IMG/VR virus record: IMGVR_UViG_3300036819_000331
Coordinates: 26,588 to 90,587 of that record
Origin: a virus
Length of the DNA: 64,000 bases
Reading direction: 5' to 3' (one strand)
The notes under the pieces are model-generated. The model did no database searches and had not been told where the DNA came from. It saw only the letters and a list, made by a program, of their open reading frames with translations. The position numbers were made by a program, and so were the translations under genes. This document shows positions 44,493 to 60,762 of the stretch, piece after piece (within the stretch, counting starts at the first letter, position 1; each line of letters starts with the position of its first letter).

Positions 44493-44495
44493 GCA

Positions 44496-47400
44496 ATGTC
44501 GTTTCTTCGCGGTCTGATCGGTGGCGGAAAATCGACGGCCACCCAGCAGACCGCAGCCGCGGGCCTGCAGGTCCAGACCTCCGTGCAGGGAAAGCCCCTC
44601 GCGCTCATCTATGGCATGACGCGCGTCGCGCCGAACTTGATTTGGTACGGCGATTTCACCGCGACTCAGCAGTCCTCGGGCGCTGGCGGCAAGGGCGGCC
44701 TCACCGGTGCCGGTGGAAAAAGCGGCGGCTCGGCGGGGTACACCTACACGGCGTCCTTCCAGCTCGCGCTCGGCGAAGGCGTTCTCAATTCCATCTGGGA
44801 TGTATGGGCAGATAAGAATCAAAGCGATCTGCCGGACCTCGGCATGTCGTTCTTCCGGGGAGACTACCAGCAAGCCCCATGGTCGTACCTTCTTCAAGGG
44901 CAGGATGCTCAGATCGATTCGGAGCCGTACGTGGTTCCGGGTTCTCCTTACCAGGTGTCGGTCAGCAATCCGCTGCTCTACGACCAGGGCGTCATTGTCA
45001 CATCTTCGTCGTCTCTGACGTATTTTCCGACCGTCTTCCAGCCCGATCTGGCGTCGAACCAATACAGCTACATCGTCAGCGCCTCCAGCGTCACCTATAT
45101 CTTCAACTCCGCGCTTGATGGCGAGTCCGTCCAGATCAGCTACAGCGTCAACGCCCAGCCCTTCACGATTTCCGCGACGGTCGCCAGCGGCCAGGTCGAA
45201 ATCGATAACGTTTTTGGGCAGGGATTCGCCGACGCCGGAGTGACCTTCATCGTCGGGTCGCCGCTCACGAAGGCTACGGGCAGTCCCTCTGCCGGGGAGT
45301 ATACCCAGGTCGGAGGCACCTACACCTTCAATAGCGCGCAGTCGGGCGCGAACGTCATCATCAGCTACGTCCCGAACAACGGGCAGTCAATCGCGCTGGG
45401 GTACAGCGGCATCGCCTACATCGCCGCGGCGAACTTCTCGCTCGGCAACAACCCATCGCTGCCGAACTTCAATTTCGAGGTATCAGGGCTCTTTTCGCAA
45501 ACCGTCCAGCAGTCGGTGCAGGGGGAGCAATATACCCTTCCGACGGCAAACGCCCTGACGATAACCGTCCGCTTCTCTCCGGAGTTCATCTCGGACGTCG
45601 GGGTCACGGATCAGGACGGCAACGTCTATACGAAGGTCAGCGCCAGCCCCGGCACCAATCAATATGTGGTGAGCGCTGGAACCTATTCCTTCTCCAGCGG
45701 CAACGCCGGAGCGGTGGTGAATATCAGCTACAACGCGAGCATCGGGCCGGATGCCCCGCCCGCGAAAGTCGTGGCCGACCTGCTTTCAAACGCGCATTAC
45801 GGCATCGGCTTCCCCTCCGACCGGGTCGATGCCCTTACGACGTATAACGCATACACGCTTGCGACGGGCCTCGTGATATCGCCGTGCTATGACACCCAGC
45901 AGCAGGCATCCTCGATGCTGGACGACATTGCCAAGGCGACGAACAGCGCCTTTGTCTGGTCTTCTGGCGTCCTCACGCTGGTCCCGTATGGCGATGAGGC
46001 GGTCACGGCGAACGGTTTCACTTACACGCCGCCCGCATCCCCGTTGTACAGCCTGACAGACGACGATTTCCTGCCCAACAAGAACCTCACAGCGTCGGCG
46101 AGCGCGTCATTCAATGACGATCCCGTGCTTATGACCCGGCTTCGCCCGGCCGATGCGTTCAACTCGATAAAGCTGGAGTGGCTCGACCGGGGCAATGCCT
46201 ACAGCCCTGCCATCATCCAGGCGGACAATCTCGCGGCGATCAATTCCTTCGGGCTGCGGCAGGACTCGGTGCGCTCCTTCCATATGTTCTGCAACGGCAA
46301 CGCCGCGCAGATATCGGTGCAGCTCCAGCTGCAGCGGCAGTCGATCCGCAATATCTACCAGTTCACGCTCGACCAGCGGTATGTGCTGCTCGACCCGATG
46401 GACATTGTTGCGATCACCGATGTGAACCTCGGCTTGAATGAGCAGTGGGTGCGTATCAACGAGATCACCGAGAATGACGACGGCTCGCTGTCGATAGTTG
46501 CTGAAGAATATCTCCAGGGCACCGGTACGGCTCCGCAATACAGCTTCCAGCAGGGGCAGGGATTCAATGCCAACTACAACGCCGATCCCGGTGCGGTTAA
46601 CGTCCCGGTGATGTTCGAGCCTCCCGCGGAGCTTACGGAGGATCTCGAAGTCTGGCTTGGGGTGAGCGGAGGCACCTTCTGGGGCGGCTGCGAGATCTGG
46701 ATTTCGACGGACAACGATAGCTACCAGTTCGCCGGGAAAACCACGGGCCCGACGCGGCAGGGTTATGTCGATGCGGCTTTGCCCGCGGTTACGCTGGCAT
46801 CGAGCGGTCTCACTATCGACCAGGCCAACACGCTGTCGGCTGACATTTCGCTCAGCGGCGGCCAGCTTTTAAATGCCTCACAGGCCGATGCCCAGAACCT
46901 CGCGACGCTCTGCTATCTGGGCTCCGGCAATACCTACGAGCTGCTCAGCTATCAGAATGCCGCGCTGCTCACCAAGAACTTCTACGCGCTCAGCTACCTC
47001 ATACGCGGCGCTTACGATAGCCCGATTCTGGCGCACCAGGCGGGAGAGCAGTTCGCGCGCATCGACTCCAGCGTCTTCAAGTATCCCTACACGCAGGACA
47101 GGATTGGGACGACGCTCTACATCAAGTTCCTGTCGTTTAACATCTATGGCGGCGGGCAGGAGCTGCTTGAGGATGTCGAGCCGTACAGTTTCACCCTGCA
47201 GGGCCTCGCGCTTTCATCTCCCCTGCCCAATATCACGAACCTGCGCAGCAGCTACGTCGCGAACATCACGCAGCTCTCATGGGATGAAGTGTCGGACTTC
47301 CGGCCGGTCCTCTATGAGATCCGCAAGGGCAGTGCATGGACCGGCGGACAGGTGCTGGGCCGCGTGGCGCACCCGCCTTTCAATGTGCAGGGCAACGGCA

Positions 47401-48281
47401 CGTACTGGGTGTCGGCCTACAGCCAGCCCACGGCGGGATTGCAGGTTTACAGCGAAGTGCCGGAGAGCCTTATCATCGCTGGCGCGCAGATCGTCAGCAA
47501 CATCATCGAATCATGGGACGAAGCGGCAACGGGATGGACGGGTTCCCTCGGCGGCGCAGCGGCCCTGTCGGCTGGCAATATCGCGCTGGGCGGCGCTGGC
47601 AATATCCTGACCGACCCGGACTTTCTGAATACGCCGAACGTGCTCTATTACGGCGGCGTCGGTTCTTCGGGGACATACACGATCCCGGACGCGCATATCG
47701 TGAATATCGGCCGCGTCGCGCCCTGCAGCATCATTATTACCAGCCTCGCCACCGGCCAGCACATCGCCGACAACATCCTGACCGTTGCCGACTTCCTGAA
47801 CTTCCAGGACGTACTCGACTCGACGGCGCAAGCGCTGGTCGATGTGTACGCCAATATCGCAACCTCTCAGGACGGCTTAACGTGGGGCGCGTGGCAGAAA
47901 TGGACGCCTGGCTCTTATAACGGGATGGCCTTCAAGGCACAGGCCGTGCTTGAGAGCATCGACGCCACCGTCACCGCGATTCTTGAGGATTTTATTTTCG
48001 AGGTCGATGTCCCTCCAAGGGACGACCACTACACGAACCTCAGCGTGCCTTCCGGCGGTTTAAGTCTCGTCTTCACGCCCGATGGCGCTACGTCTCCGGC
48101 GGCCTTCAACGGCGGCCCGGCGAATGGCGACCTTCCCGCGGTACAGGTGACGATCCTGAACGCGCAGGCGGGTGATCAGCTGGTGCTGAGCAGCCTGTCG
48201 CTCTCGGGATGTCAGCTGCAGGTGACGAACGGCGGCTTTGGCGTCAGCCGCAGTGGCAACGTGCTGGCCGAAGGTTTTTAA
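44496..48281 (+). CDS. tail tip / central fibre protein (J-like)
   Basis: G.P....YG..RV..NLIWY.DF start; PNFNFEV; L.PMDIV..D; L.RG.Y.S..H..G..F.R. Confidence 0.85.
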   Translation: MSFLRGLIGGGKSTATQQTAAAGLQVQTSVQGKPLALIYGMTRVAPNLIWYGDFTATQQSSGAGGKGGLTGAGGKSGGSAGYTYTASFQLALGEGVLNSIWDVWADKNQSDLPDLGMSFFRGDYQQAPWSYLLQGQDAQIDSEPYVVPGSPYQVSVSNPLLYDQGVIVTSSSSLTYFPTVFQPDLASNQYSYIVSASSVTYIFNSALDGESVQISYSVNAQPFTISATVASGQVEIDNVFGQGFADAGVTFIVGSPLTKATGSPSAGEYTQVGGTYTFNSAQSGANVIISYVPNNGQSIALGYSGIAYIAAANFSLGNNPSLPNFNFEVSGLFSQTVQQSVQGEQYTLPTANALTITVRFSPEFISDVGVTDQDGNVYTKVSASPGTNQYVVSAGTYSFSSGNAGAVVNISYNASIGPDAPPAKVVADLLSNAHYGIGFPSDRVDALTTYNAYTLATGLVISPCYDTQQQASSMLDDIAKATNSAFVWSSGVLTLVPYGDEAVTANGFTYTPPASPLYSLTDDDFLPNKNLTASASASFNDDPVLMTRLRPADAFNSIKLEWLDRGNAYSPAIIQADNLAAINSFGLRQDSVRSFHMFCNGNAAQISVQLQLQRQSIRNIYQFTLDQRYVLLDPMDIVAITDVNLGLNEQWVRINEITENDDGSLSIVAEEYLQGTGTAPQYSFQQGQGFNANYNADPGAVNVPVMFEPPAELTEDLEVWLGVSGGTFWGGCEIWISTDNDSYQFAGKTTGPTRQGYVDAALPAVTLASSGLTIDQANTLSADISLSGGQLLNASQADAQNLATLCYLGSGNTYELLSYQNAALLTKNFYALSYLIRGAYDSPILAHQAGEQFARIDSSVFKYPYTQDRIGTTLYIKFLSFNIYGGGQELLEDVEPYSFTLQGLALSSPLPNITNLRSSYVANITQLSWDEVSDFRPVLYEIRKGSAWTGGQVLGRVAHPPFNVQGNGTYWVSAYSQPTAGLQVYSEVPESLIIAGAQIVSNIIESWDEAATGWTGSLGGAAALSAGNIALGGAGNILTDPDFLNTPNVLYYGGVGSSGTYTIPDAHIVNIGRVAPCSIIITSLATGQHIADNILTVADFLNFQDVLDSTAQALVDVYANIATSQDGLTWGAWQKWTPGSYNGMAFKAQAVLESIDATVTAILEDFIFEVDVPPRDDHYTNLSVPSGGLSLVFTPDGATSPAAFNGGPANGDLPAVQVTILNAQAGDQLVLSSLSLSGCQLQVTNGGFGVSRSGNVLAEGF

Positions 48282-48299
48282 CCCTCTTAAGGTTTTGAA

Positions 48300-49616
48300 A
48301 TGTCGCAAAACTCTCTGACCCTGCCGACGAGCGGCACGGTATCCGGCCTGCAAATGGCGCAGGCCACAAACAATGCTCTCGACACACTCAATACACTGGC
48401 CTCTGGCGCATCCGCTCCGGGCAGCCCCGAAGCGGGGCAGCTCTGGCACGACACGACCAACAACCTCCTGAAGATCCGTAGCCTCGACAACACCACGTGG
48501 GTTCCATTTCTCCAACTCAACGAAAGCTCCTACGCTGCCGCGCCTTCCAATTCCGCCACCGGCGCCAATGATCGCCTCAACCGTCTGATCAACGGCGCAA
48601 TGATGATCGACCAGGTGAATGAAGGTGCCAGCTATTCGGTCCCGGTCAACAATACCCTCACCTATGCGGTCGACCAGTGGATCGCGGCATGCCTCAGCAC
48701 CGGTAGTGCCAGCGGAGTCACGGCGCAGCGCGTGGCCGACGCACCGGCGGGATTCGTGAATTCCCTGAAGGTCACCGTCGGGACCGGAGCAGGTTCGGTG
48801 GGTGCCGGGGATTTTCTCCTGCTGTCACAGCCGATTGAAGCTAACAACCTGGGCGACATCAACTTTGGCACCGCGAATGCAGTCCCATTGTCCCTTTCGT
48901 TCTGGGTAAAGTCCTCGGTCGCTGGCACCTTCGCCGCCGCCTTGCAGAATGCGGCTGGCAGCCGCGTCCTGGTCCACAAATTCTCCATAGTGAGCACAGG
49001 GACCTGGACGCAGATCACCATTCCGAACATCGTCGGCGATACCGGCGGCACGTGGGTCACGAGCGGCAACGCCGTTTCGATGACGCTTTTCATTACCGTG
49101 GCCACCGGCAGCACGTACCAGCAGGCAACCCTTGACTCATGGGTGGGCGGCACCGCCTTCGGTTCAACATCGCAGACCAATGGCGTGCTCACCACCACCG
49201 GCGCTACCTTCCAGGTCGCAGGCGTGCAGCTCAATAGCGGATCTTTCTGTATGCCGTTCGAGAAGCGCCAGTTCCAACAGGAACTCTCACTCTGCCAGCG
49301 CTATTTCGAGAAAAGCTATGACTTCGGCACGGCAGTCGGTACCGCGAGTTCGCCGAACGGCTGCGAGTATTTCGTGGCCGCTGCGGCAGTTGATGGCGCG
49401 GGCATTCGCTACAAGGTGACAAAGCGCGCCGACCCGAGCCTCACACTTTACTCGCCTAATTCAGGGACCTCCGGTAAAGCCTACGATTCTAACGGGTCTG
49501 CTGATGTGACCGTGGGTGGTGCCAATATCGGGCAGAACGGAGCGATCGGAGCCGGTAGCGGGTTCACCTCCGGCCATCAGATACAGCAACACTGGACAGC
49601 AAGCGCAAGGATGTAA
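48300..49616 (+). CDS. tail fibre / receptor-binding protein
   Basis: N..L.TL..SG..AP..GQLW.DT; NRLING.M.I.Q..D.W; LSFWVK; FE.R...EL.LCQRYFEK. Confidence 0.8.
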   Translation: MSQNSLTLPTSGTVSGLQMAQATNNALDTLNTLASGASAPGSPEAGQLWHDTTNNLLKIRSLDNTTWVPFLQLNESSYAAAPSNSATGANDRLNRLINGAMMIDQVNEGASYSVPVNNTLTYAVDQWIAACLSTGSASGVTAQRVADAPAGFVNSLKVTVGTGAGSVGAGDFLLLSQPIEANNLGDINFGTANAVPLSLSFWVKSSVAGTFAAALQNAAGSRVLVHKFSIVSTGTWTQITIPNIVGDTGGTWVTSGNAVSMTLFITVATGSTYQQATLDSWVGGTAFGSTSQTNGVLTTTGATFQVAGVQLNSGSFCMPFEKRQFQQELSLCQRYFEKSYDFGTAVGTASSPNGCEYFVAAAAVDGAGIRYKVTKRADPSLTLYSPNSGTSGKAYDSNGSADVTVGGANIGQNGAIGAGSGFTSGHQIQQHWTASARM

Positions 49617-49619
49617 GCC

Positions 49620-49766
49620 ATGGGAATTTCAACGGTCCACGATGCCGGGGGCAGCTATACGGTCACTCTTGCCGACGGTACGGTAATGTCCGTCCCAAAG
49701 GATCCGCTGAACGCCGATTACGTGCGGGTGCAGGTGTGGGTGGCGGCGGGCGGAGTTCTCTCTTAA
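49620..49766 (+). CDS. small tail-fibre-associated protein
   Basis: VP.DP.N.DY..V..W.AAGG motif; below the ORF-track cutoff. Confidence 0.6.
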   Translation: MGISTVHDAGGSYTVTLADGTVMSVPKDPLNADYVRVQVWVAAGGVLS

Positions 49767-49808
49767 CAACAAACGGGATTGTTTCACTTCACAGGGGAGC
49801 GGAAAGAG

Positions 49809-50216
49809 ATGGAGGAGATGGCCAATGACGCTGTTGTTGACCGACGGATCTGGAGCAGCACCAAGAAGTTCATCCACATAAGTGCAATCATTGCTCCCTG
49901 CATTGCCGCCTTCCTGGCCGTGCAGTTCACCGGCAACCAGAACTCCAAAGACATAGAGCAGATAAAGACGATACTTGCGACGCTGGTGTCAGCTCCGCTC
50001 TCGGTGCAGCAAAACACCAAGGATATCGAAGATCTCAAGGCCAGCAGGGCCGCCATCTATTCCAAGATGAACGAGACGTTTGACTCGCTCGATCACAAGA
50101 TTTCAGAGGTAGACCTCAAGCTCAACACTATTTCTGTCAACGAGGCGCAGATCGGCCAAAGCGTGCAGGATATCAAGGACGGTCTCCGCGAAGACAGGAA
50201 CAGGCGGGGCCGATGA
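49809..50216 (+). CDS. single-TM coiled-coil protein, holin candidate
   Basis: One TM near the N-terminus; ATGA-coupled to endolysin. Confidence 0.5.
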   Translation: MEEMANDAVVDRRIWSSTKKFIHISAIIAPCIAAFLAVQFTGNQNSKDIEQIKTILATLVSAPLSVQQNTKDIEDLKASRAAIYSKMNETFDSLDHKISEVDLKLNTISVNEAQIGQSVQDIKDGLREDRNRRGR

Positions 50217-50656
50217 GCGCAGCGGACATCGATACGGTCGCCCGGACTCTCTACGGCGAGGCCCGAGGATCAGGTGCGGACGGAATGAGCGCTGTCGCCT
50301 GCGTCATAATGAACCGCTGCCGTGTTGCCCAACAGTACGTCACCGCCCACGGCAAACCCCATCCCGAATTCGGCGATGGCACACCGCAATCATGCTGCTG
50401 GATGGACGAGCAATTCTCGTGCTGGGATGACGATGATCCGAATCTCGATGTCATCGAGAACGTGACCAGCGCAGATCCGGTATTTCAGGAAGCGATGGAG
50501 ATTGCCGGGGCTGCGGTCGCTGGCACGCTGCCCGACACCACGAGCGGTGCGACATTTTATTACGCCAAGAGCATGCCGCAACCGCCTTATTGGGCAAAGG
50601 GAAAGACACCCTGTGCGGACATAGGCGGGCAACGTTTTTTCAACAACATTCAATAG
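50213..50656 (+). CDS. endolysin, SleB/CwlJ-like cell wall hydrolase
   Basis: ARTLYGEARG..AVA.VI.NR..QFSCW..D.T.GAT.YY..P.WA..IG...F. Confidence 0.9.
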   Translation: MSAADIDTVARTLYGEARGSGADGMSAVACVIMNRCRVAQQYVTAHGKPHPEFGDGTPQSCCWMDEQFSCWDDDDPNLDVIENVTSADPVFQEAMEIAGAAVAGTLPDTTSGATFYYAKSMPQPPYWAKGKTPCADIGGQRFFNNIQ

Positions 50657-50665
50657 GGGTGTTTC

Positions 50666-51040
50666 ATGAAGGTAGCCATCAACGCAAGGCTGGTGCTGCT
50701 CGCGCTCGCCGTCTTGATGCTGAGCATTGGCTCGGTCTGGGCGCAGAGCGTCCCGAAGACCAGCACGAACCTGTCCGGCACCATTACGACCACCGGCACA
50801 TTCCAGCAGATCCAGGGGCAGGCGAACGGCCGGCAGGGCTGCACGATAACGGACAACACCGTCAGCGACAATCAATGGGTTTATTTCGGCACATGCGCGA
50901 ACGCCACGCAGGCCACCGCGGTGCCGCTGTATCCGGGCCAGTCGGTAAACTGCAATCTGCCGGGCGGCAATCTCGTGCTCTCCGATCCGGTGTGCATCAC
51001 CGGAACAACCGGCGACACGTTCTTTGCAAACTTTCAGTAG
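50666..51040 (+). CDS. secreted beta-sandwich protein (4 Cys)
   Basis: Signal peptide MKVAINARLVLLALAVLMLSIGSVWA-Q. Confidence 0.75.
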   Translation: MKVAINARLVLLALAVLMLSIGSVWAQSVPKTSTNLSGTITTTGTFQQIQGQANGRQGCTITDNTVSDNQWVYFGTCANATQATAVPLYPGQSVNCNLPGGNLVLSDPVCITGTTGDTFFANFQ

Positions 51041-51049
51041 GGCTGGTCA

Positions 51050-53344
51050 ATGAGGCTTTTTCTCGCCTTAGCGCTGTCGATTCTGCCGGTTTCACCGGCA
51101 TTCGCCCAGACCGTCGGGCCGCCTCCCGGCTCGGTCTTGCCGAGCGGTGCCGCGCCTGGCGCCGGAATTCCGAACTGCACCGGCATGCGCAACATCGCCA
51201 CTTGCGAAAAGTCATACGGGTATGTGTTTCCCATGCTTCACGGCGCGGGGTGCACGGGATATGGCGACGACGAACCGGGATTCTCGGCGGCGGAGAGCGC
51301 CGGATTCGCCATCAACCCTTCGAGCGGACTGCCTATCCGTTACCCGGCAGGGCTCGTCTGCCAGTTTCAGCAGCCGTGGCTATTTGGGCATGACGGGGTG
51401 ACCCTTGAGTTTCCCACGCAGGTAAGCACTTATGACGGCGGAAGCTATGAAAACAACGCGGGATATATTCGCGAAAACACCGGGTACACCACCCACTTCT
51501 ACGCAGCCGGAAACTGCGCGATGGACCTGAACGGCTATCATGACTTTACGATAAAAGACGGGAATATCCTGGGCGATGGCGCGCAGCAGGGCACAGTCCA
51601 GTTCTGCGACTCCACTACCTACGTGGGAGGACGCCTGCCGACCATAACCCTGATCCACACTTCCGTGCAATTGATGGGCAACGCGGCAGGCGGCCCGATC
51701 AATACGCTCGCTTACACCGGTTCGGCAACTGGTACGTGTACAGGTGCGCTTTGTGGCAATTACATCAAGCTCAACGTCTTTGACAGCGATCTTGGTGAGA
51801 ACGGATGGTCGGAGTTAGGGAATATTACGGATGCATTTAATTACAACAGCACGTTTAATGCAGACTCCTGCGGCATCATCAGCGGTTATTCCACCACCAC
51901 TACTGATATCCTCTCGATCGGTAACCGGTTTGAGGCGGCTGGATACGGCCTGGCTAACACCTGCCCGCCAGGCGGACCGGCATGGTTAGTAACCGGCGTT
52001 GGATGGTCGGACGCCGGTAGCCAGTTTGAAGTAAACAACGGCCCAGATATCGAGCTTACGACGGGCTGGGGCAACTTCCATAAGACAGGCGGTCACTTCC
52101 TTGGCGCGGGTGTACTGGGAGGCAGCGGCGACGAGTCCAGCATCCTGCTGAATGCGGCATCGTCCGCGGGCGGGGCGACGATAGACTCCGACTGGCGTCT
52201 CTTGAACGGGACGCCGAAATACGCCATCGAGGGATTGGACGCGCAGATCAGCGACAATATCACGCTGAGGGGCAATCTCGGCTCTAACGGATACGCGACC
52301 GGGCTTTCCAACTTCACCGCCGGCACGCCGCCGCACTTCAGTGTGTTCGCGAACGGCGAAACCCCGACGATCTACAGCAACCCGATAAAGTTCGGTGGAG
52401 TGGCATCGCTTTCGCCGACGACGGCTTTCGACGGATTAGGCACGCTGCCCGTAACCTCGACGTCCGATCCATTCAACATCAGCACCGGCAATACCAATAC
52501 GATGGTGGTTGCGGGATTCCGCATCAATACCGCGACTCCATCAGCGGGCTCCGGCTATTCCGCGATCAATGCGGCAAACTACCTTCTCACGGAGTATAAG
52601 GTCGTTTCCTCGGTGCAGACCAATCTCTCCGTCACGGTAGGCACGGGCGCGGGCACCACGCAAACGGCGATAGGCGATGCAATCGTCGGCTCAAGCTCGC
52701 TTGCACTGGACGGCAGCGCTGCTTCCAATGTCACGAGCGGCACCTCGGCGACGGAATCCCTGACAACGGCGAACGGCAATGATGAAATCGTGGTCTTCGT
52801 CGAGGCAAACGCTACCGGTTCGAGCTGCACGGGTCCCAATCCGACGATTACGTCCATCACCTCGACCCATATCGGGAACTTCACCAGGCGGAAATCCTTC
52901 AAGACATCTGTCACGTGCAGCGAAATCGAGGAATGGGCGGCGATTGCCCCTTCCGTACTGACGTCGGAAATCATCACTATAAACTTCAGTCAGAGTATTT
53001 CCTTCGCCACGATCAGCGTTTTCGGGGTGAGTCATATCATCCCGACGCTGACCCCCAACTTTCTTTCTGGTGGTAACTTCGATCTCGGCCTCGTCCACAC
53101 CGCCTGCCCCTGCGTAGTGGAGAATCCAACGAACCCCACGCTGGCGTCGGGATCGAACGGCGAAATCGAGATTGACCAGAGCGCGACTGGTTCCGACACG
53201 GTGAGCTGGGGCAGCAACTGGAAATTCGCGGGAGGATCGGCACCGTCGCTCAGCACGGGCGCATCGGATAAGGATTACTTCCCCTTCTACGTCAAGGACG
53301 CCACCGACATCATAGTCTCGGCTGGCACGATTAACGCTCACTGA
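51050..53344 (+). CDS. secreted beta-helix/fibre-like protein (14 Cys)
   Basis: Signal peptide ..SPAFA-Q; pectate-lyase-3-like cap; fibre-type C-terminal NP.N..G..G.I..Q..W.F.GG.APSLST domain. Confidence 0.75.
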   Translation: MRLFLALALSILPVSPAFAQTVGPPPGSVLPSGAAPGAGIPNCTGMRNIATCEKSYGYVFPMLHGAGCTGYGDDEPGFSAAESAGFAINPSSGLPIRYPAGLVCQFQQPWLFGHDGVTLEFPTQVSTYDGGSYENNAGYIRENTGYTTHFYAAGNCAMDLNGYHDFTIKDGNILGDGAQQGTVQFCDSTTYVGGRLPTITLIHTSVQLMGNAAGGPINTLAYTGSATGTCTGALCGNYIKLNVFDSDLGENGWSELGNITDAFNYNSTFNADSCGIISGYSTTTTDILSIGNRFEAAGYGLANTCPPGGPAWLVTGVGWSDAGSQFEVNNGPDIELTTGWGNFHKTGGHFLGAGVLGGSGDESSILLNAASSAGGATIDSDWRLLNGTPKYAIEGLDAQISDNITLRGNLGSNGYATGLSNFTAGTPPHFSVFANGETPTIYSNPIKFGGVASLSPTTAFDGLGTLPVTSTSDPFNISTGNTNTMVVAGFRINTATPSAGSGYSAINAANYLLTEYKVVSSVQTNLSVTVGTGAGTTQTAIGDAIVGSSSLALDGSAASNVTSGTSATESLTTANGNDEIVVFVEANATGSSCTGPNPTITSITSTHIGNFTRRKSFKTSVTCSEIEEWAAIAPSVLTSEIITINFSQSISFATISVFGVSHIIPTLTPNFLSGGNFDLGLVHTACPCVVENPTNPTLASGSNGEIEIDQSATGSDTVSWGSNWKFAGGSAPSLSTGASDKDYFPFYVKDATDIIVSAGTINAH

Positions 53345-53357
53345 CAGGACCCTCCTC

Positions 53358-53612
53358 ATGAAACGATTGACCATTCTTTTTGCCCTTTGCGCTCTCCCCG
53401 CATCCGCGCAGGACAACTGCCAGATCATGACCAAGGCTGAATTCCTGCAATTCCAGCAGCAGCAAAAATCACGAATGGAAGAGAGCTGCGGCCTGTTCTT
53501 CTGTAACCCCGCCAGCCCATCCTGCCCGAAGTCGATCTCGGTATGCTGGACCGATACCGACGAGGGGAATGTCATCCGCCGCGACCTCACCTGCAAGGGA
53601 AATCCGCAATGA
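53358..53612 (+). CDS. small secreted Cys-rich protein
   Basis: Signal peptide ..LPASA-Q; 6 Cys in the mature part. Confidence 0.65.
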   Translation: MKRLTILFALCALPASAQDNCQIMTKAEFLQFQQQQKSRMEESCGLFFCNPASPSCPKSISVCWTDTDEGNVIRRDLTCKGNPQ

Positions 53613-53806
53613 AAAACAAGATTCTGCTGCTGCCCCTTCTGCTGGCTGGATGCTCGCAGCCTCAGCACTTCGCCAAGACCGTTACTGCTTTCCCCGCGCC
53701 TCCGGCCTACGTGCAGGAAGGAACCGGAGAAGTCAAATATCTTAAGGACGGCGATATCATCCACGAGGCCAACGGACTTTGCGGCTACGTCCAGGCCAAG
53801 CAATAG
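53609..53806 (+). CDS. small lipoprotein
   Basis: MKNKILLLPLLLAG-C lipobox; ATGA coupling. Confidence 0.7.
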   Translation: MKNKILLLPLLLAGCSQPQHFAKTVTAFPAPPAYVQEGTGEVKYLKDGDIIHEANGLCGYVQAKQ

Positions 53807-53818
53807 GGCTGCAGGCGC

Positions 53819-54607
53819 ATGAGAATCTTCTATTCTGCCGTAGTTGCCGCCATGCTCGCGCTTGCGGGCAACGCAATGGCGCAGAATGTAGGCGCTGTGC
53901 CCGTCACGAAGCAGATCTCGCAATCCGGCATTCCCATCATCCTGCCGTCTTCTGGCAGCATAGGAAACAACGGCGCGCTCACGGGTCTCACTGCCCTGCC
54001 GCAGACGTTCGCCAACTGCTATATGTACTTCCCGGCAAACGCCATCGCGTCAGGTTCGACTGCGGGTGTCTATTTTGTCCAGATGGGCAGCTCGAGTGCC
54101 GGGACGATTTATAACAATCCGCTGTCCAGCGGAAAGCCCACCATACCCGCCTCACCGACCCCCTTCGTCACCACCGGGCCAGGCGCTTACACGCAGACGA
54201 CGAGCTCGCCCATATCCTTATTGACTATCCCTATCGCTGCAGGTGCACTTGGCAATAGCGGCAATATTTATCTGGAAGCTTCCGCCAACGTTAACAACAA
54301 CTCCGATTCCAAGTTTCTCCTCGGTACTTTCGGCGGAACAACGTTCTTCCAGTATCAGTTGACCTCGCAGATCTGGGGTGGCCTTCTGAGGCGAATCCAG
54401 AATACTGGATCACAATCGACGCAAGTGACGATGAGCGCTGGAAATACGCAATCCGGTACGGACTTCTCGTTGAACGGGAGCGCCAGCAACTACATGACGG
54501 TCAACACGGCCAACGCACAGAATCTGGTTCTCCAGCTGCAGATAAACACCGCGACCGACTTCGCGATCCCCAGTTCGTACTTCGTGCAGATCAGGCCGAG
54601 CAATTAG
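53819..54607 (+). CDS. secreted beta-rich protein
   Basis: Signal peptide ..GNAMA-Q. Confidence 0.7.
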   Translation: MRIFYSAVVAAMLALAGNAMAQNVGAVPVTKQISQSGIPIILPSSGSIGNNGALTGLTALPQTFANCYMYFPANAIASGSTAGVYFVQMGSSSAGTIYNNPLSSGKPTIPASPTPFVTTGPGAYTQTTSSPISLLTIPIAAGALGNSGNIYLEASANVNNNSDSKFLLGTFGGTTFFQYQLTSQIWGGLLRRIQNTGSQSTQVTMSAGNTQSGTDFSLNGSASNYMTVNTANAQNLVLQLQINTATDFAIPSSYFVQIRPSN

Positions 54608-54666
54608 CCATTCGTGCCCAAAGCCGCCATCCCGAACCCATCCCAAACAATTGATCGAGGACGACC

Positions 54667-55101
54667 ATGTATGTCTTGACCGCGCCTCCAAACATCAGTC
54701 AGTTCCAGGCGAGCAGCGGAGCTCAATATACGGTTTCCAGTGGCACCATCACTGTGCCCTTGACCGATTTGCGCGATGCCCTCATTTCAGGTTTCGCCCT
54801 GAGCAGCGCGGGCTCATCGTCTCAGACAATTTCGGGAGCCGCAGGGACGCTGGCTCTCTCAACGATCCATACCTATCTTTTCGTAAATACTCTTTCGGGC
54901 GCTGCGAGTTTTGCGCTTCCGGCGGCGGGCATACTAGGCCGGTCAGTCACGATGATCGATTTCAATGGGAACGCGCCAGCCAACAACATCACAACGGCGA
55001 TCGCGGGCGGGGGAACCATTAACGGCAGCCCAAGCCTGGTGACGGACACAACTTATGCGATCGTGACCTTCATCGATAACGGAACCAACTGGAACATATA
55101 G
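54667..55101 (+). CDS. fibre-repeat protein without signal peptide
   Basis: LPA...G..V...D..G.A..NNIT....G.TING...L...Y..VT....GT.W repeat. Confidence 0.7.
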   Translation: MYVLTAPPNISQFQASSGAQYTVSSGTITVPLTDLRDALISGFALSSAGSSSQTISGAAGTLALSTIHTYLFVNTLSGAASFALPAAGILGRSVTMIDFNGNAPANNITTAIAGGGTINGSPSLVTDTTYAIVTFIDNGTNWNI

Positions 55102-55109
55102 GTAGGACA

Positions 55110-57053
55110 ATGAAGATATTCCGTAAAGCATTGACGTTCCTTGCCGCGCTGGCACTCGGCAGCTTCGCGATTAATGCTGCGGCCCTCGTTCCTCTCGATA
55201 AGGGGGTCACGGGCATTCTTTCTCCTGCGAACGGCGGCAACGGCGGCAATAACGGCGGCCCTCTCAGCGGCCTTGGAGGCCTCGGCTCGATTATTCCGGT
55301 CACCGCACCGACTTCCGCGAAGATTTACACTTCGGATCAGATATCGTCATCGCAGACTTTTTACGGGATGACGGCGGCTTCCACGCCAAATCCCGTGTTT
55401 GGTTTCTGGGGGGCTTACAATATTTATGAGGCCACGGGTGCTGCCCCTGGAACGCATGTCGCAGGTAACGCAAGTTCCCCCGATACTCCCGCTTTCTGGG
55501 AAATGTTTGGGTACAGCGGGAAGGGCTTTGAGCTTAGAGTTTTCAACGGCGTGCCCACTTATCTTTTTGTGGATAATAATTTTTATGATGTGTTTTATTC
55601 CCCATTACTCACTGGCACATCGCCCGGCACCGGCGACACATCGACCGTAATCACCCTGGCTTCGGGGGCCAGCACGACGAACGGCGCTTATAATCAGTAT
55701 TATGTGGCAATCACGGCCGGCACGGACATCGGCGACGTGCAGCCAATATGCAGCTACGTGGGAAGCACGACGCTTCAGGCGACATTGTGCTCCGGCTCTA
55801 CTTTTGCGGTAACACCGGATTCAACCAGCGTGTATGCTATCCAAAGCAGCGCAAGGGGCTGCCCTTCGGGGAATTGCCTACGCGCATCCGGCGGTGGCCA
55901 TGAAGATTTTGTTTATGTGCAGTTTCCGTCTATCGGCTGGCATCATATTAAGGTCTATTCCAGTCAGTTCGAAGGCGTTGCCATTGGCCCGAATGATTCA
56001 CTTGTTCCCGAAGGCCCACAGAATGCCGTTGCGGCTATCGAAGTCGGAGATTCTTTTACGGGCTGCACTTCAGGCCCGAATAGCGGCCCATGCCTTTCGA
56101 CCTATATTGCCACGGCGCTTAACGCCTACGAGATAAACGCAGGCAGCGGCAGCACGGGGTGGGCCAGCCCCGGCACCCCGGCGAAACTCAATTTTATGGA
56201 ACGCATTTGCCCGCCGGATGGCAGCGGTAAGGGGGCATCCGGCGCAAGCTACCTTTACGCTCTGAAATGCACAGGCGGTGGTGGTGGCTGCGGTGGTACT
56301 TATAATTTATCGATCACGTATAACGGCAGCACACAGACGGCTAGTAGTATCGCAGTCGCGGCCAGTAGTTCCACCATTCAGTCCGATCTTGCGGGCCTTT
56401 CCAATGTTCCCCTCTCGTCGGATATTGTCGTCGGCTACAACGGCGGCGTTAATACCCCTATCGCCGTCGAGATGTATAACATGCCAGGCGCAACGCTCAC
56501 GCTGGACACGACCAACGTCACTGCCTACGCCACTTCGTTCATTATTCCCTATATCGGCGAAGTGGCCCCGTTCATTCCTAAAGATTCCGCAGGGCGATCA
56601 TTGCCGGTGAAGCTTTTCGTTGAAGGTTCAGGTAATGACCTTGCGGGTGGCTACACGACAACTCAGATCGGGAACAATGCGACTGCCACGGCGCAGTGCA
56701 TCGCGCAGAGATTCCCGACTGCGCTTGCGATTTATACAGGCGCAGTTACTGTTGGAAGTCCGGCGAGCAGCACCGTCATTGCAAATAATGCCGCGCTTCG
56801 CGCTGCGTCTGGGTATCTGAACCCGATTAACGGAAACTCCAATCCCTATGTCGAGACTTATCCCGGTGGCCTCAACAGCGGGTCTTTTCTCGGAGGCACG
56901 GGTACCGGCAGCGTTGCAAGTCCGACTGCAAACACAAACGACATAGAGGTGAGTTTTACCAACTCAGGCCATCCGACATCGAACGGCCAGATGTACCTGG
57001 GCAATTATCTCGGCTATCTCGGACAGCAAATATATAATGGGAACTCAAGGTAA
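55110..57053 (+). CDS. secreted SGNH/GDSL hydrolase with fibre-like N-terminus (10 Cys)
   Basis: Signal peptide; VTGILSPANGGNG; GDSFT, GSGSTG, GSGND, GHP blocks. Confidence 0.75.
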   Translation: MKIFRKALTFLAALALGSFAINAAALVPLDKGVTGILSPANGGNGGNNGGPLSGLGGLGSIIPVTAPTSAKIYTSDQISSSQTFYGMTAASTPNPVFGFWGAYNIYEATGAAPGTHVAGNASSPDTPAFWEMFGYSGKGFELRVFNGVPTYLFVDNNFYDVFYSPLLTGTSPGTGDTSTVITLASGASTTNGAYNQYYVAITAGTDIGDVQPICSYVGSTTLQATLCSGSTFAVTPDSTSVYAIQSSARGCPSGNCLRASGGGHEDFVYVQFPSIGWHHIKVYSSQFEGVAIGPNDSLVPEGPQNAVAAIEVGDSFTGCTSGPNSGPCLSTYIATALNAYEINAGSGSTGWASPGTPAKLNFMERICPPDGSGKGASGASYLYALKCTGGGGGCGGTYNLSITYNGSTQTASSIAVAASSSTIQSDLAGLSNVPLSSDIVVGYNGGVNTPIAVEMYNMPGATLTLDTTNVTAYATSFIIPYIGEVAPFIPKDSAGRSLPVKLFVEGSGNDLAGGYTTTQIGNNATATAQCIAQRFPTALAIYTGAVTVGSPASSTVIANNAALRAASGYLNPINGNSNPYVETYPGGLNSGSFLGGTGTGSVASPTANTNDIEVSFTNSGHPTSNGQMYLGNYLGYLGQQIYNGNSR

Positions 57054-57205
57054 TGGTTATCAAAAACCAAAGCGAAACCACATTTCCTGAAAACGCCCTG
57101 TACAACAATGAATTACAGCGCTTTTATGACGTGACCAGATTCAAACTGGATGATGTGTCGTTGCGGCCCGAGATTCAGGAACTGTCCGGAGCGCAGTAAG
57201 ACCAA

Positions 57206-57394
57206 ATGTCCAGACAACTCGACTGGCTCATCAGCGCCGTCATCATGGCGGTGGTCATCATGGCGGAGTACCGGCTGGTGTTCTTCGGGGTGTTTGAGCC
57301 ATTGCCGCTTGTTTCCGGCATCGCGCTTCTGCTGCTCATCCGCGTGATCAACCAGCATCTGCCGCGGCTGATTGCCGCGAAGCGCAAGCGGTAA
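57206..57394 (+). CDS. small two-TM membrane protein
   Basis: Hydrophobic with basic C-terminus; holin-like topology possible. Confidence 0.5.
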   Translation: MSRQLDWLISAVIMAVVIMAEYRLVFFGVFEPLPLVSGIALLLLIRVINQHLPRLIAAKRKR

Positions 57395-57482
57395 GCCCCC
57401 CCCACCGTGTTTCCCGCCGATTGTTCAGCTTCTGTGCAGCGGTGCGCGCAGACCCCAACCCTCGTAACGAAGGAGCCTAAAG

Positions 57483-57734
57483 ATGTTTGTGATTTCCAAG
57501 GACATGGGCAAAGGCAACCCGCCCGCCTTCTTTGCCGGGGCCTATACATGGTCCACGCTTGAGCACGCAAAGCAGTACCCGAGCGAGGCCTCCGCACAGG
57601 CCGCCGTCGATTGCAGCGATTTCCTCGCAGGCTGCATCGTCATGCCGAACGATGAAACGGTTTTCGTCGGCAGAAGCCAGAAAAACGTAGAGGTAGTGAA
57701 CGGCATGAAGCCGGACACGGGCCGAAACGATTAA
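57483..57734 (+). CDS. hypothetical protein
   Basis: AAGGAG RBS. Confidence 0.6.
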   Translation: MFVISKDMGKGNPPAFFAGAYTWSTLEHAKQYPSEASAQAAVDCSDFLAGCIVMPNDETVFVGRSQKNVEVVNGMKPDTGRND

Positions 57735-57782
57735 CACCCGCGCATTCCGCGCGGTCATCAACCCCAACTACAGGAGTCCTCT

Positions 57783-58178
57783 ATGAACCTCATCAAAACG
57801 GTCGAAGATTTGGCCGAAACCATCGGCACGGATGTCGAGACCTTCGCCGACACAGAATACCACGCCTTCCTCACGGCGAGCCTGCCCCTCTTCAACGACC
57901 TGAAGGCGTTCGCCCAGACCACCGGAAAGGCCGACTTGGCGACCCTGCTCAACGACCTGAAGGCGGATCTCGTCACGGGCGTCACCACCCTTGCTGCGAC
58001 CGGCGGCAACACGGGCGCCGCCATCGCGGCGGTTTCGACAGAAGCCCTCGGCCAGGTGAAGGATGTCACCGCAGCTGCCAAGAACGCGGTTTATGGCGCG
58101 CTCGCTATCGTGGCGGCCGACGTACCCGCGATTGTCGGTGCTCCGGCAGCAAGCTCCGCTTCCGGCGCGTCCGCGTAA
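57783..58178 (+). CDS. Ala-rich helical protein in lysis region
   Basis: AGGAG RBS; typical codon usage. Confidence 0.7.
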   Translation: MNLIKTVEDLAETIGTDVETFADTEYHAFLTASLPLFNDLKAFAQTTGKADLATLLNDLKADLVTGVTTLAATGGNTGAAIAAVSTEALGQVKDVTAAAKNAVYGALAIVAADVPAIVGAPAASSASGASA

Positions 58179-58288
58179 TGCGCGCCCTTCTGTTAATCGG
58201 GTTGTTGAGCCTATCGGCCTGCAACCCGATCTGCTGGGCGGCTCATCCGAACTGCAATTGGATTGAGAATGGCGGGAGTTGCTGCTGA
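58178..58288 (+). CDS. 36-aa Cys-rich mini-lipoprotein
   Basis: MRALLLIGLLSLSA-CNPICWAAHPNCNWIENGGSCC; TAATG and TGATG coupling. Confidence 0.65.
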   Translation: MRALLLIGLLSLSACNPICWAAHPNCNWIENGGSCC

Positions 58289-58587
58289 TGCCCGGCATTC
58301 AAGAAAAACGGGTTGACTGGCAACCCAACGCCGTTGACTGGCCGTTCCCGGCGCTCAAGCCCGGCGAGTACGGTAAGGACGAGGACGGGCTGTGGTACTG
58401 CATTCCGCCCGTTGAGAGCTGTGGCGAGGGAGGTCAGCGACACGGCGTGCTGGGCAACCTCGGCAACCACAAGGTCATCGAGCATGAGGACGGCACGATC
58501 AGTGTGTCGCCGTCCATCTTGGTCAGCAACGGCCAGGGATGGTCATGGCACGGCTATCTGGAACGTGGCGTCTGGCGGCAGTGTTAA
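58288..58587 (+). CDS. DUF6527-like protein
   Basis: H...DG.ISVSPSIL....WHGYL..G.W. Confidence 0.6.
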   Translation: MPGIQEKRVDWQPNAVDWPFPALKPGEYGKDEDGLWYCIPPVESCGEGGQRHGVLGNLGNHKVIEHEDGTISVSPSILVSNGQGWSWHGYLERGVWRQC

Positions 58588-58606
58588 TGCGCGCGGGAGA
58601 TTGGTG

Positions 58607-58816
58607 ATGCTGGTGGATGTCTTTCTGTATTACGCGATCGGCTTCGTGGTCTGGGGTTGGTGCGTCAACAAGTACGTGGCCTACATGAGCACGCCGGCAT
58701 TTATTAAGGGGCTGTTCTACCGCCCCTTTCTGTGGCCCGTCATGCTCTGGTTTGCCGCCTTCAAATGGCGGGATGTACGGCAACTCTTCCGCCCGGATCG
58801 GAAAGGCGCGTCATGA
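58607..58816 (+). CDS. small membrane protein
   Basis: Two hydrophobic segments, LWP motif. Confidence 0.5.
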   Translation: MLVDVFLYYAIGFVVWGWCVNKYVAYMSTPAFIKGLFYRPFLWPVMLWFAAFKWRDVRQLFRPDRKGAS

Positions 58817-59046
58817 GCTGGATCTGGGCCGCTATCAGCGGCGCATTCTCTGGGCTGGCACAGGGCTTCCTGTCGCTGTTCGGGATGTCCACGGCGCAGA
58901 AGCTGGGCCGGGCGGAAACGAAAGAAGCCACCGACGAAAAACTCCTGCAGGAGGTAAAAGAAGCCAATGATACGGATGCTGATAGCGCTCGCGCTGGTGA
59001 CGACGCTTTGCGGGTGCAGCTCTCTCGGTTCAAGCGCCCCGACTGA
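58813..59046 (+). CDS. i-spanin (Rz-like) candidate
   Basis: N-terminal hydrophobic segment plus short coiled coil; overlapped by a lipoprotein ORF. Confidence 0.65.
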   Translation: MSWIWAAISGAFSGLAQGFLSLFGMSTAQKLGRAETKEATDEKLLQEVKEANDTDADSARAGDDALRVQLSRFKRPD

Positions 59047-59158
59047 TTCGTTTTGCCTTCTGGCGAAGCCGATGACGTGGAGCGATGCTGATACGGCTGA
59101 CACCCAGCATGAAATCCTGCTCTACGACGCCCGCGGGCATACGCTCTGCGGGTGGTAG
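58967..59158 (+). CDS. o-spanin (Rz1-like) lipoprotein
   Basis: Lipobox LCGC; DSFC...P...S..DT..T..I......LC; overlapped arrangement. Confidence 0.75.
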   Translation: MIRMLIALALVTTLCGCSSLGSSAPTDSFCLLAKPMTWSDADTADTQHEILLYDARGHTLCGW

Positions 59159-59192
59159 CCCCGAAACATCAAACAACCAAAGGAGACCGGCA

Positions 59193-59324
59193 ATGCTCGA
59201 CACTATCCTCCTCGTGTTCGCGTTCGTGCTTTTCGTGCTCGCCGCTGTCGGAATTCCTTCAGGCCGCTACAATCTGATCGGTGCCGGGCTGGCGTGTTAC
59301 ATCGCGACAATGCTTTTTCACTGA
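59193..59324 (+). CDS. 43-aa hydrophobic protein
   Basis: AAGGAG RBS; two short TMs. Confidence 0.6.
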   Translation: MLDTILLVFAFVLFVLAAVGIPSGRYNLIGAGLACYIATMLFH

Positions 59325-59376
59325 AGAAACGAACAATCGACCGACGGCAAGGCCCCTTCAACTGAAGGAGGCTCCC

Positions 59377-59454
59377 ATGCTTGACCACCTGCTCCGATAC
59401 CATCCTGGCTACCTGCTGATGCTGCTGATTGCGGCGGCGGTGTGCCACGGATAA
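59377..59454 (+). CDS. 25-aa hydrophobic peptide
   Basis: AAGGAGG RBS; MLDHLLRYHPGYLLMLLIAAAVCHG. Confidence 0.45.
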   Translation: MLDHLLRYHPGYLLMLLIAAAVCHG

Positions 59455-59476
59455 ATGATTGCGTTCTGGCGAAACT

Positions 59477-59512
59477 GGCCCTGCTGCCCTTCGGGGTGGC
59501 AGGGCCTTTTTT
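59477..59512 (+). terminator. rho-independent terminator ending the late operon
   Basis: GGCCCTGCTGCCC-TTCG-GGGTGGCAGGGCC-TTTTTT. Confidence 0.9.
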
Positions 59513-59523
59513 GCGTCGGGGCA

Positions 59524-60762
59524 TTAACTTCTTATTACCCGCCCGCTGATAATACCGACGAGCACCCCAAACATCGCGAGACCAAAGACAATTTCACTGC
59601 AAGCTACCATCTTTCCCCAGTTCCCTGCTGGCAAAATGTCGCCGTACCCTACGGTTGTCATTGTCACGACGCTGAAGTAGAAGGGATCGGTGAAATCACG
59701 CAGTGGCTTAACCAGTTTAAATATGTAGTAAATCCATGCATATGACGAGGCCACCACGATCAAAGATATGAACCACCGCACATAGTCAGTTCCGTACTTG
59801 GATGTGATGCGCCAGAACCCATAAGCTAGTGCGGGCACCCATTTTCTATTTCTAAGGTAACGCCTACGCCGGTGTTCCGCCGCGAGGGCGCCAAATCTGA
59901 TACTCTCATCGCGATTGCCGGCCGCCGCCAGTTCGCGCGAAAACAGCTCAAATGCCGAGATAATGAACTCAGCAGTAGATTCCTCGACGAAATTCACCGG
60001 GAAATGTGGATTTAGCTTTCTGGAACCAATATAGCTTGCGTGAGCCGCAGTTTCCATTGTGTTTAGAACATCGACCTTGTCATCTCGTTCCTGTTGGGTG
60101 AGAGGCAGTATTCTCCTCAATGAATCTTGATCGAGCGTCATAGCTTGCCGAGCGCACATGGAGATGGCTCGCCGGAAGGAAATGGCAGCATGATACCCAT
60201 GGCCCTGCTTGAGATGCATATTTCCGGCCAGCCAAAAATAGAAGGATGCCTGGGACAAGTCACCAGCGTTTAGCGCAGCTTCTGCAGCATGCCTATGACA
60301 CTCCCCGGCGAAAGTGAAAGCGCCGGCCGCAATCGGTAACGGTGGAATTCTGTCCGAGATCACTACTGTCGCTTTTCCGAGTCTTTCGAACGCGTTGGCC
60401 GCTTGGCTAAGATACGAGGCGGTGCCGAAACTGTCGGAAATCTGTCTGTAGCAAAATGAGGCAAGAAGATTAAGTTCCGCTATGACTTGTGGATGCACCG
60501 TCTTCGCCTTGTGGGCATTTGTCACCGCATCCACGTAAGCGAGAGCGGCTTCTCGATAGGTGGCTGCGGCTTCATAGCATCCTGCTGCGCGTGTGAAAAG
60601 CTGTGCTTGCCCCTCGAAGTTGTTCTGCACTGTATTCGCAAATTCAGAGAATAATGTTCCAGCAAGCCACCAATTGCCGTCCTCTTCTGCGCGAAGGGCT
60701 GCGGTGAGCGGTTTTGGGGGCAATGCTGGTAACCGAAGTTGTAAGCCGAACTTATGGCGCAT
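59524..60762 (-). CDS. helical-repeat (TPR/SNAP-like) protein fused to a 2-TM K+ channel pore
   Basis: YFSVVTMTTVGYGD filter flanked by TMs; Ala/Tyr-periodic helical repeats in the N-terminal 300 aa. Confidence 0.8.
   Translation of the reverse strand: MRHKFGLQLRLPALPPKPLTAALRAEEDGNWWLAGTLFSEFANTVQNNFEGQAQLFTRAAGCYEAAATYREAALAYVDAVTNAHKAKTVHPQVIAELNLLASFCYRQISDSFGTASYLSQAANAFERLGKATVVISDRIPPLPIAAGAFTFAGECHRHAAEAALNAGDLSQASFYFWLAGNMHLKQGHGYHAAISFRRAISMCARQAMTLDQDSLRRILPLTQQERDDKVDVLNTMETAAHASYIGSRKLNPHFPVNFVEESTAEFIISAFELFSRELAAAGNRDESIRFGALAAEHRRRRYLRNRKWVPALAYGFWRITSKYGTDYVRWFISLIVVASSYAWIYYIFKLVKPLRDFTDPFYFSVVTMTTVGYGDILPAGNWGKMVACSEIVFGLAMFGVLVGIISGRVIRS

Follow-up and report, generated by a model that had tools for sequence, protein, structure and literature searches.

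A late-operon block in a soil prophage encodes predicted exported proteins built from tailspike and tail-fibre modules

In the textbook account, tailed phages assemble wholly in the cytoplasm, and their receptor-binding proteins lack a leader. Other phage proteins act in the envelope of the cell that produces them. Lom, Bor, Llp, and Cor (phi80/N15) carry a signal or a lipobox for this, and Llp shields the progeny from receptor on debris. The phage G7C protein gp63.1 is an example of an SGNH esterase used as a tailspike or fibre. On the bacterial side, the beta-helix proteins WceF, RbmB, and AlgG are exported. The MAT fibres of Bdellovibrio bacteriovorus are tail-fibre-like and surface-displayed, with interchangeable tips that include TNF-like domains with disulfides (PMC10769870). 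Endolysins exported by Sec or as signal-arrest-release (SAR) proteins are further phage-encoded exported proteins (PMC6116005). We analyzed a 64,000-nucleotide stretch of DNA (IMG/VR virus record IMGVR_UViG_3300036819_000331, positions 26,588 to 90,587; the window), which is a prophage within a 556-kb contig of a 7.9-Mb metagenome-assembled genome (MAG) from soil. Our subject is a block of seven co-oriented genes in it, g1 to g7 (50666..57053, + strand).

Like Lom, Bor, Llp, Cor, and the exported endolysins, six of the block proteins are signal- or lipobox-bearing and encoded beside tail-fibre and lysis genes. Each of those described proteins is a small outer-membrane protein, a lipoprotein, or a muralytic enzyme, usually from a single gene that often has its own promoter, whereas the block is a seven-gene run of large, predicted disulfide-rich proteins derived from fibres and tailspikes. 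The MAT fibres share a fold with one block member, as the g5 model aligns to the tip of Bd2734 (Z 8.4, in a range common for jelly-rolls), but they are proteins of ~1000 aa from chromosomal genes of a predator, in no phage operon and without sequence relationship to the block. A prior reading of the window from its letters alone (the sequence-only reading) knew of no described system of this kind. Our literature searches agree, with no description of Sec-exported fibre or tailspike proteins in tailed phages, though cellular analogues exist in the MAT fibres and the WceF/RbmB-type enzymes. We favor, with a probability of roughly 0.4, the explanation that the block proteins are soluble or envelope-acting factors that modify or bind glycans and are released at lysis.

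The block is probably part of the late/lysis transcription unit. As had been proposed, the seven genes are consecutive, follow the endolysin gene at short distances, and have no terminator among them, in agreement with the open reading frames (ORFs) and gaps we found. The first starts 9 nt past the stop codon of a gene for a SleB-type endolysin without a signal (50213..50656, +; PF07486 Hydrolase_2, E 2.7e-13; phrog_15649 endolysin, E 9e-16). From the endolysin through g7 the gaps are 9, 9, 13, -4, 12, 59, and 8 nt, and the gaps within the block showed no excess structure when folded. A consensus scan of the + strand found no terminator-like or promoter-like site within the block or its flanks and no sigma-70-like promoter from 44000 to 59500, with the caveat that the consensus may not fit this host. 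The region's only strong terminator (59477..59506, +) is intrinsic, with a 13-bp stem of which 10 pairs are GC followed by a T run, and closes the late operon. Upstream of it and downstream of the block are the true spanins, an i-spanin (Rz-like; 58732..59046, +; phrog_1026, E 3.9e-5) and an o-spanin (Rz1-like lipoprotein; 58967..59158, +; phrog_1275, E 6.8e-11) whose gene overlaps the end of the i-spanin gene. With the spanins and the only strong terminator beyond it, the block lies inside the late/lysis operon. The lysis cassette is thus split, with the endolysin gene ~8 kb upstream of the spanin pair and the block between them. The spanin pair also indicates an outer membrane, and with it a periplasm, in the host.

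Six of the seven products are predicted to be exported. The sequence-only reading had assigned five signals of the signal peptidase (SPase) I type and one lipobox, and canonical N-termini were found in the same six genes by inspection and with a crude hydropathy/charge rule. A Sec/SPase I signal was scored on a positively charged n-region, an h-region of 7-15 residues, and small neutral residues at -3/-1. In g1, g2, g3, g5, and g7 there is a K/R n-region, a hydrophobic core of at least 10 residues, and small residues at -3/-1; the g7 signal is longer. Four of the predicted sites cut at A-Q, also as noted before: VWA/Q in g1, AFA/Q in g2, ASA/Q in g3, and AMA/Q in g5, the slash marking the cut, so that the predicted mature parts begin at Q27, Q20, Q18, and Q22. 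The g4 signal ends in a lipobox (consensus [LVI][ASTVI][GAS]C), LLAG/C at residues 11-15, with Ser at +2. Only g6 is without a signal. By the crude rule, none of the ~25 + strand ORFs between the small terminase and the endolysin (25270-50656) is signal-like. The rule's background, taken from 1187 ORFs of three large contigs, is ~12.6%, giving a probability of 2.4e-5 for at least six of seven. The mature parts of g1, g2, g3, and g7 have 4, 14, 6, and 10 Cys, all even numbers that our recount reproduced, and the 513-aa major capsid protein has 0, again as claimed.

Comparison with homologues had been suggested as a check of the signals, and independent homologues in three families have them too. 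The C-terminal domain of g2 is the most telling. Among 88 proteins carrying it, 56 are signal-bearing by the crude rule and ~16 more by inspection, bringing the share to ~80%. Every signal-bearing member keeps an invariant CxC motif in this domain, and none of the five members that lack CxC has a signal (Fisher p = 0.005). The only member from a cultured phage, cyanophage S-B68, is leaderless, lacks CxC, and is encoded beside a giant tail-fibre gene; its domain was also the only match for g2 in the cultured-phage records. Even Cys counts are found in 89% of the signal-bearing relatives vs 58% of the others. Taken together, the signals, CxC, even Cys numbers, and Cys conservation argue strongly, though indirectly, that the signals function and that folding takes place in an oxidizing compartment. 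The part of the sequence-only reading that had the block proteins exported and oxidatively folded thus stands by inference, and we consider export with periplasmic disulfide formation very probable.

The second gene of the block, g2 (51050..53344, +), encodes a tailspike-type beta-helix protein. Behind its signal (AFA/Q) are a predicted beta-helix at residues ~42-443, two ~100-aa middle repeats, and a fibre-type C-terminal domain with CxC at 664-764. With nine signal-bearing homologues as input, AlphaFold gave a model with an overall pLDDT (predicted local distance difference test) of 54; the model is usable for residues 42-443, where pLDDT is 50-90, and for 665-760. The modeled helix aligns with Klebsiella phage Kp9 gp42 (7xy1_A) at a VIA Z of 27.4 and a root-mean-square deviation of 2.8 A over 319 residues, and with CBA120 tailspikes (TSP2), AlgE4, RbmB, WceF, and AlgG at Z 19-26. 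About 145 PDB chains match the model at Z of at least 8, nearly all of them beta-helix proteins. The model thus has the right-handed parallel beta-helix of tailspike and pectate-lyase-like depolymerases. No Pfam family (Beta_helix, Pect-lyase_RHGA_epim, and similar) matched g2 or its 8 beta-helix homologues, and we took an Atlas feature score of 0.84 as a lead only. In the Atlas structural search the C-terminal domain led to 'phage tail fibre C-terminal domain' clusters. Fold and homology therefore agree with the earlier call of a beta-helix and a fibre-type C-terminal domain.

HMMER searches against 1.8 billion representatives indicate that g2 is modular. The helix part has 7 homologues, all signal-bearing, while the 100-aa C-terminal domain is common to hundreds of proteins; the Cys residues of the helix are kept in 7-8 of nine homologues. 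The publicly available annotation of g2 (P0001, 648 aa) places the start 116 codons further downstream, skipping 51050-51397, and so drops the signal. The single close homologue of g2, P0002 (49% identity, signal-bearing), aligns with it from residue 1, and we accepted the upstream start because of this conservation.

Similar to the virion tailspike depolymerases (Kp9 gp42, CBA120 TSP2-4, and Acinetobacter phage tailspikes), g2 has a beta-helix (Z 20-27 over ~300 residues), is encoded next to tail-fibre genes, and ends in a fibre-type domain. Unlike them, it has a predicted cleavable Sec signal and no adaptor domain, its 14 Cys are kept among signal-bearing relatives, it lacks a Pfam beta-helix match, and its gene is located after the endolysin. 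The alignments start at residue ~42-58 of the g2 model but only at residue 270-299 of Kp9 gp42 and CBA120 TSP2. As the helix begins ~25 mature residues after the signal, g2 appears to have no N-terminal particle-binding or adaptor domain of the kind that a virion tailspike would have. The fold is also shared, at Z 19-23, with WceF (6tgf, Pantoea), RbmB (9ozd, Vibrio), and AlgG (4nk8), which by their entry titles act on the exopolysaccharide (EPS) of their own cell. These enzymes differ in being encoded in EPS or biofilm gene clusters, without a fibre-type C-terminal domain or a prophage lysis cassette. Together the model and alignments support a tailspike-type, depolymerase-like beta-helix protein without a virion anchor.

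The product of the last gene of the block, g7 (55110..57053, +; 10 Cys), looks like an exported SGNH-type esterase with a beta-sandwich, a 'TAQAG' module, and an insert as additions. The fibre motif that the sequence-only reading saw right after the signal is present, VTGILSPANGGNG at residues 33-45. It is followed by the beta-sandwich, the 'TAQAG' module (166-248), and a split catalytic domain with GDS at 314-315, GSGND at 505-509, H621, and an inserted decoration-type domain at ~395-440. Six homologues align with g7 over nearly its whole length, and GDS, GSxN, and HP are invariant among them, so that SGNH blocks I, III, and V are represented by D314, S315, G506, S507, N509, H621, and P622. 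No Pfam family matched g7 itself; three of the seven proteins in the family match PF13472 Lipase_GDSL_2 (best E 2e-5) and one PF00657 Lipase_GDSL. The Atlas model of g7 (pLDDT 0.61) matches GDSL_3/GxDLY clusters with template-modeling (TM) scores of 0.59-0.63 by target. The esterase assignment is based on the invariant residues, the family Pfam matches, and this model match. At the DxxH block g7 reads N-S-G-H; D-G-x-H occurs in P0009 and P0010 only. This Asp is dispensable in some SGNH enzymes.

The GDS, GxND, and His blocks are shared with phage SGNH tailspikes and cellular GDSL/CE2-type esterases, and the N-terminal beta-sandwich with GxDLY/CE2_N proteins. Unlike these relatives, g7 has a Sec signal, a catalytic domain split by an insert, the 'TAQAG' module, 10 Cys, and Asn for the DxxH Asp. 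Signal-bearing and leaderless members both occur in the g7 family, with 1-5 Cys in the homologues vs 10 in g7. No match for g7 was found in the cultured-phage records. The 'TAQAG' module (window 55605-55853, ~70 aa; TAQAG...ITLASGAS...GTGAGQ...YVGSTKVAT...PDxTSxY) is widespread, with up to six tandem copies in P0008 and one in the Pectate_lyase_3 protein P0016. The insert (window 56290-56430) matches PDB 9d93, with three copies in 'Tail tip cage, gp23' and one in 'Tail tube, gp19'. We rejected the insert as a module that also decorates the phage's own J protein, tube, or connector, as no similarity was found.

A third protein, g5 (53819..54607, +; signal AMA/Q), is predicted to be a jelly-roll domain of the TNF/C1q/lectin-like, receptor-binding type (AlphaFold2, pLDDT 90). 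Against BFVD the model reached a TM score by query of 0.81 to uncharacterized proteins of uncultured Caudovirales. In the PDB its matches are TNF/C1q-like lectins and fibre tips of phages and Bdellovibrio at Z 8-10, with nothing at E of 1e-3 or below in a Foldseek search. The g5 domain has over 410 homologues, ~95% of them leaderless; ~5 of 119 carry signals. In 61 IMG/VR loci it usually forms the C-terminal end of a leaderless fibre. The longest of these ORFs has 2838 aa, one ORF contains collagen-like repeats, and two contigs, L032 and L034, encode such a fibre directly after a homologue of the J protein. As its homologues end long phage fibres, g5 corresponds to the distal, receptor-binding domain of a tail fibre. 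In 4-6 of the loci the protein with the g5 domain is signal-bearing instead. PHROGs gave no matches to the g5 family, and the cultured-phage records one partial match to g5.

The remaining block genes are small. g1 (50666..51040, +; signal VWA/Q) encodes a 98-aa mature part with 4 Cys and has no Pfam or PHROG family match and no match among cultured phages. g3 (53358..53612, +; signal ASA/Q) packs 6 Cys into 67 mature residues, also with no Pfam or PHROG family match. The start of g4 (53609..53806, +), the small lipoprotein with the LLAG/C lipobox, overlaps the g3 stop; its weak Rz-like PHROG matches are confined to the signal region. We rejected g3 and g4 as a spanin pair, as g3 is Cys-rich with a predicted cleavable signal and no coiled coil and the genuine pair is at 58732-59158. 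The signal-less g6 (54667..55101, +; 144 aa, 0 Cys) had been credited with a fibre repeat, which did not hold up: only weak PHROG matches were found (phrog_20556 baseplate, E 0.003), and there was no match among cultured phages. A resemblance of g6 to the C-terminal part of P0002 was likewise rejected (BLASTP E 0.42).

The favored explanation, free glycan-acting factors, is a late-operon cassette of glycan-cutting, -deacetylating, and -binding proteins made from tail-fibre and tailspike modules and addressed to the envelope rather than to virion assembly. The seven genes would be co-transcribed late with those of the endolysin and spanins, given the 8-13 nt gaps, the lack of promoter- or terminator-like sites in the block, and a lone terminator at 59477. 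Six products would then cross the inner membrane by Sec, as the recurrence of canonical signals in homologues suggests, and be cut by SPase I or, for g4, be processed by SPase II and lipidated. In the periplasm g1, g2, g3, and g7 would gain disulfides, their Cys being even in number and conserved. From their folds and catalytic motifs, g2 is predicted to cleave or modify a surface polysaccharide, g7 to remove O-acyl groups, and g5 to bind glycan. More speculatively, the proteins may stay soluble or envelope-bound until lysis frees them. On the dying cell and on debris from it, they could then remove or cover the polysaccharide that the phage itself uses as receptor, and they could also loosen the surrounding EPS, so that progeny spread untrapped, in a logic like that of T5 Llp and free depolymerases.

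Basic adsorption would not need the block. The phage has a leaderless gpJ-like central tail fibre or host specificity protein (1261 aa; 44496..48281, +), 28-36% identical to J-like ORFs of viral contigs L032, L034, and L072, and a leaderless tail fibre (438 aa; 48300..49616, +; phrog_4492 tail fiber protein, E 3.7e-39). The completeness of this J protein and fibre, the position of the block past the endolysin, the missing anchor of g2, and the lipoprotein nature of g4 all favor free or envelope-acting factors, as does the presence of exported cellular enzymes acting on their own EPS (WceF, RbmB, AlgG) among the structural matches of g2. Several findings weigh against them. The modules of g2, g5, and g7 are those of virion receptor-binding proteins, and both g5 and g7 keep a fibre-start motif (ILxxxxGxxGNNGxLxGL-like) directly after the signal. 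We identified no catalytic residues in g2, g7 lacks the Asp of the DxxH block, and g1, g3, g4, and g6 have no assignable function. Leaderless stand-alone homologues of g5 also have no large N-terminal anchor, so its absence from g5 says little. In other uncultured contigs, signal-bearing fibre-like runs occupy the normal fibre slot.

The next explanation is that the block proteins are virion accessories matured in the periplasm. Some tailed phages of soil bacteria would route outer receptor-binding proteins through Sec, these would be disulfide-bonded in the periplasm, and they would dock on particles once lysis opens the envelope, the block supplying add-on members of a branched set of receptor-binding proteins. 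For T4 and lambda, fibres free in a lysate are known to attach to particles that have none. A depolymerase together with an SGNH esterase and lectin tips resembles the equipment of multi-tailspike phages, and the virion-type modules and the fibre-start motifs of g5 and g7 fit as well. Uncultured contigs supply more. Among the IMG/VR carriers of the g2 C-terminal domain, 21 of 26 have signals, usually beside further signal-bearing Cys-rich ORFs. In podovirus-like contigs L074 and L084, signal-bearing runs are in the fibre slot, preceded by a gp16-like internal virion protein that has a cell-wall hydrolase domain and followed by a GH108 endolysin; directly after the gp16-like protein of L074 is a signal-bearing Phage Tail Collar protein (PF07484, E 7.7e-18). 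L024 encodes four signal-bearing ORFs between the major head protein and podovirus tail proteins, and in L072 two such ORFs come after a J homologue and its fibre and before the endolysin. Signal-bearing genes in the fibre slot may thus favor virion association in at least some phages.

For this phage, docking on virions, which the sequence-only reading set beside remodeling of capsule or EPS as a possible fate, is weakened by the missing anchor domain of g2 and by the leaderless J protein and fibre that the phage already encodes. Here the block is after the endolysin and not in the fibre slot, and g4 as a lipoprotein and g1 and g3 as small Cys-rich proteins are unlike virion parts. No docking partner was identified for the block proteins. 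We regard docking as possible but rather unlikely.

Runs of 3-5 consecutive ORFs that are signal-bearing, Cys-rich, and fibre-like and take up the tail-fibre slot were seen at L074 6056-11668, L084 5522-8971, L075 7059-10274, and L024 3914-8699, with Tail Collar, ArabFuran-catal-like, and SPRY domains among them.

The sequence-only reading had named lysogenic conversion as the main alternative. The block genes would then be morons for conversion or superinfection exclusion, expressed in the lysogen, where they would remodel or mask the host polysaccharide, blocking adsorption of this phage and its relatives, or give a new surface or EPS phenotype. Lambda Lom and Bor, T5 Llp, and Cor typify morons as exported proteins whose genes adjoin those for tail fibres and lysis, and the block has this placement. 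The ~8-kb split in the lysis cassette is what an insertion would leave, and GC content at third codon positions is heterogeneous across the block (0.59-0.83), suggesting a mosaic origin. The members g1 to g7 were not found together elsewhere in the IMG/VR loci examined, which makes the cassette a mosaic rather than a conserved machine. There is no paralogue of any of them elsewhere in the source genome. In 300 genomes of the same order there were 0 matches to g7, 0 to gpJ, and one weak match to the g2 C-terminal domain, and scans of genome contigs and viral contigs found no close relatives of g7 or gpJ. A moron is expected to have its own promoter and terminator, often with deviant composition or orientation. 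Lysogenic conversion is less favored than had been thought because neither a promoter nor a terminator was found around the block, within the limits of the consensus scan, and because an independent promoter would not fit into gaps of 8-13 nt, the first of them just past the endolysin stop. The block also has the orientation of the late operon, unlike a 78-aa ORF on the reverse strand between the tape-measure and distal tail genes (41153-41389, -), which has a lipoprotein signal with the lipobox LAAC. From its moron layout that ORF is a candidate Llp/Cor-like exclusion lipoprotein. On balance we consider the moron explanation for the block improbable.

That the N-termini are membrane anchors or mis-called starts of ordinary cytoplasmic virion fibres, as the downstream public start of g2 might suggest, is very improbable, since the upstream region of g2 is kept with P0002, signal included, the n, h, and c regions with A-x-A/Q sites follow the canonical pattern and are found again in independent homologues from three families, and they co-occur with even Cys and CxC, all members without CxC being leaderless.

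In this prophage, tailspike, esterase, and fibre-tip modules are apparently addressed to the periplasm and have a Cys signature of oxidative folding, which also turns up in many uncultured soil phage contigs. If such proteins act as free factors, they would form a dedicated class of secreted phage glycan-remodeling factors, which would bear on how phages spread through soil biofilms rich in EPS, on the destruction of receptors, and on halo-type enzymes. If they dock, this would be a new two-compartment assembly route for the host-recognition gear of virions, for which we found no description in Caudoviricetes. Annotation may under-report such proteins, as automated gene calls can clip signals, which happened with g2. 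Pipelines that mine depolymerases on the assumption of cytoplasmic folding would misexpress such enzymes, which probably need periplasmic or otherwise oxidizing expression.

Between the fibre and endolysin genes there is a single-transmembrane coiled-coil protein, a candidate holin or lysis accessory with only weak family matches (49779..50216, +), whose gene overlaps the endolysin start by 4 nt. A previously unlisted 48-codon ORF (49620-49766, +) occupies what had looked like a 162-nt gap between this gene and the fibre gene, so the late operon is continuous there. Past the block are small membrane ORFs at 57206-57394, about 58600-58816, and 59085-59324. Beyond the late terminator, on the reverse strand (59524-60762, -), an ORF joins a TPR/SNAP-like N-terminal region to the pore of a K+ channel (PF07885, E 2.8e-17).

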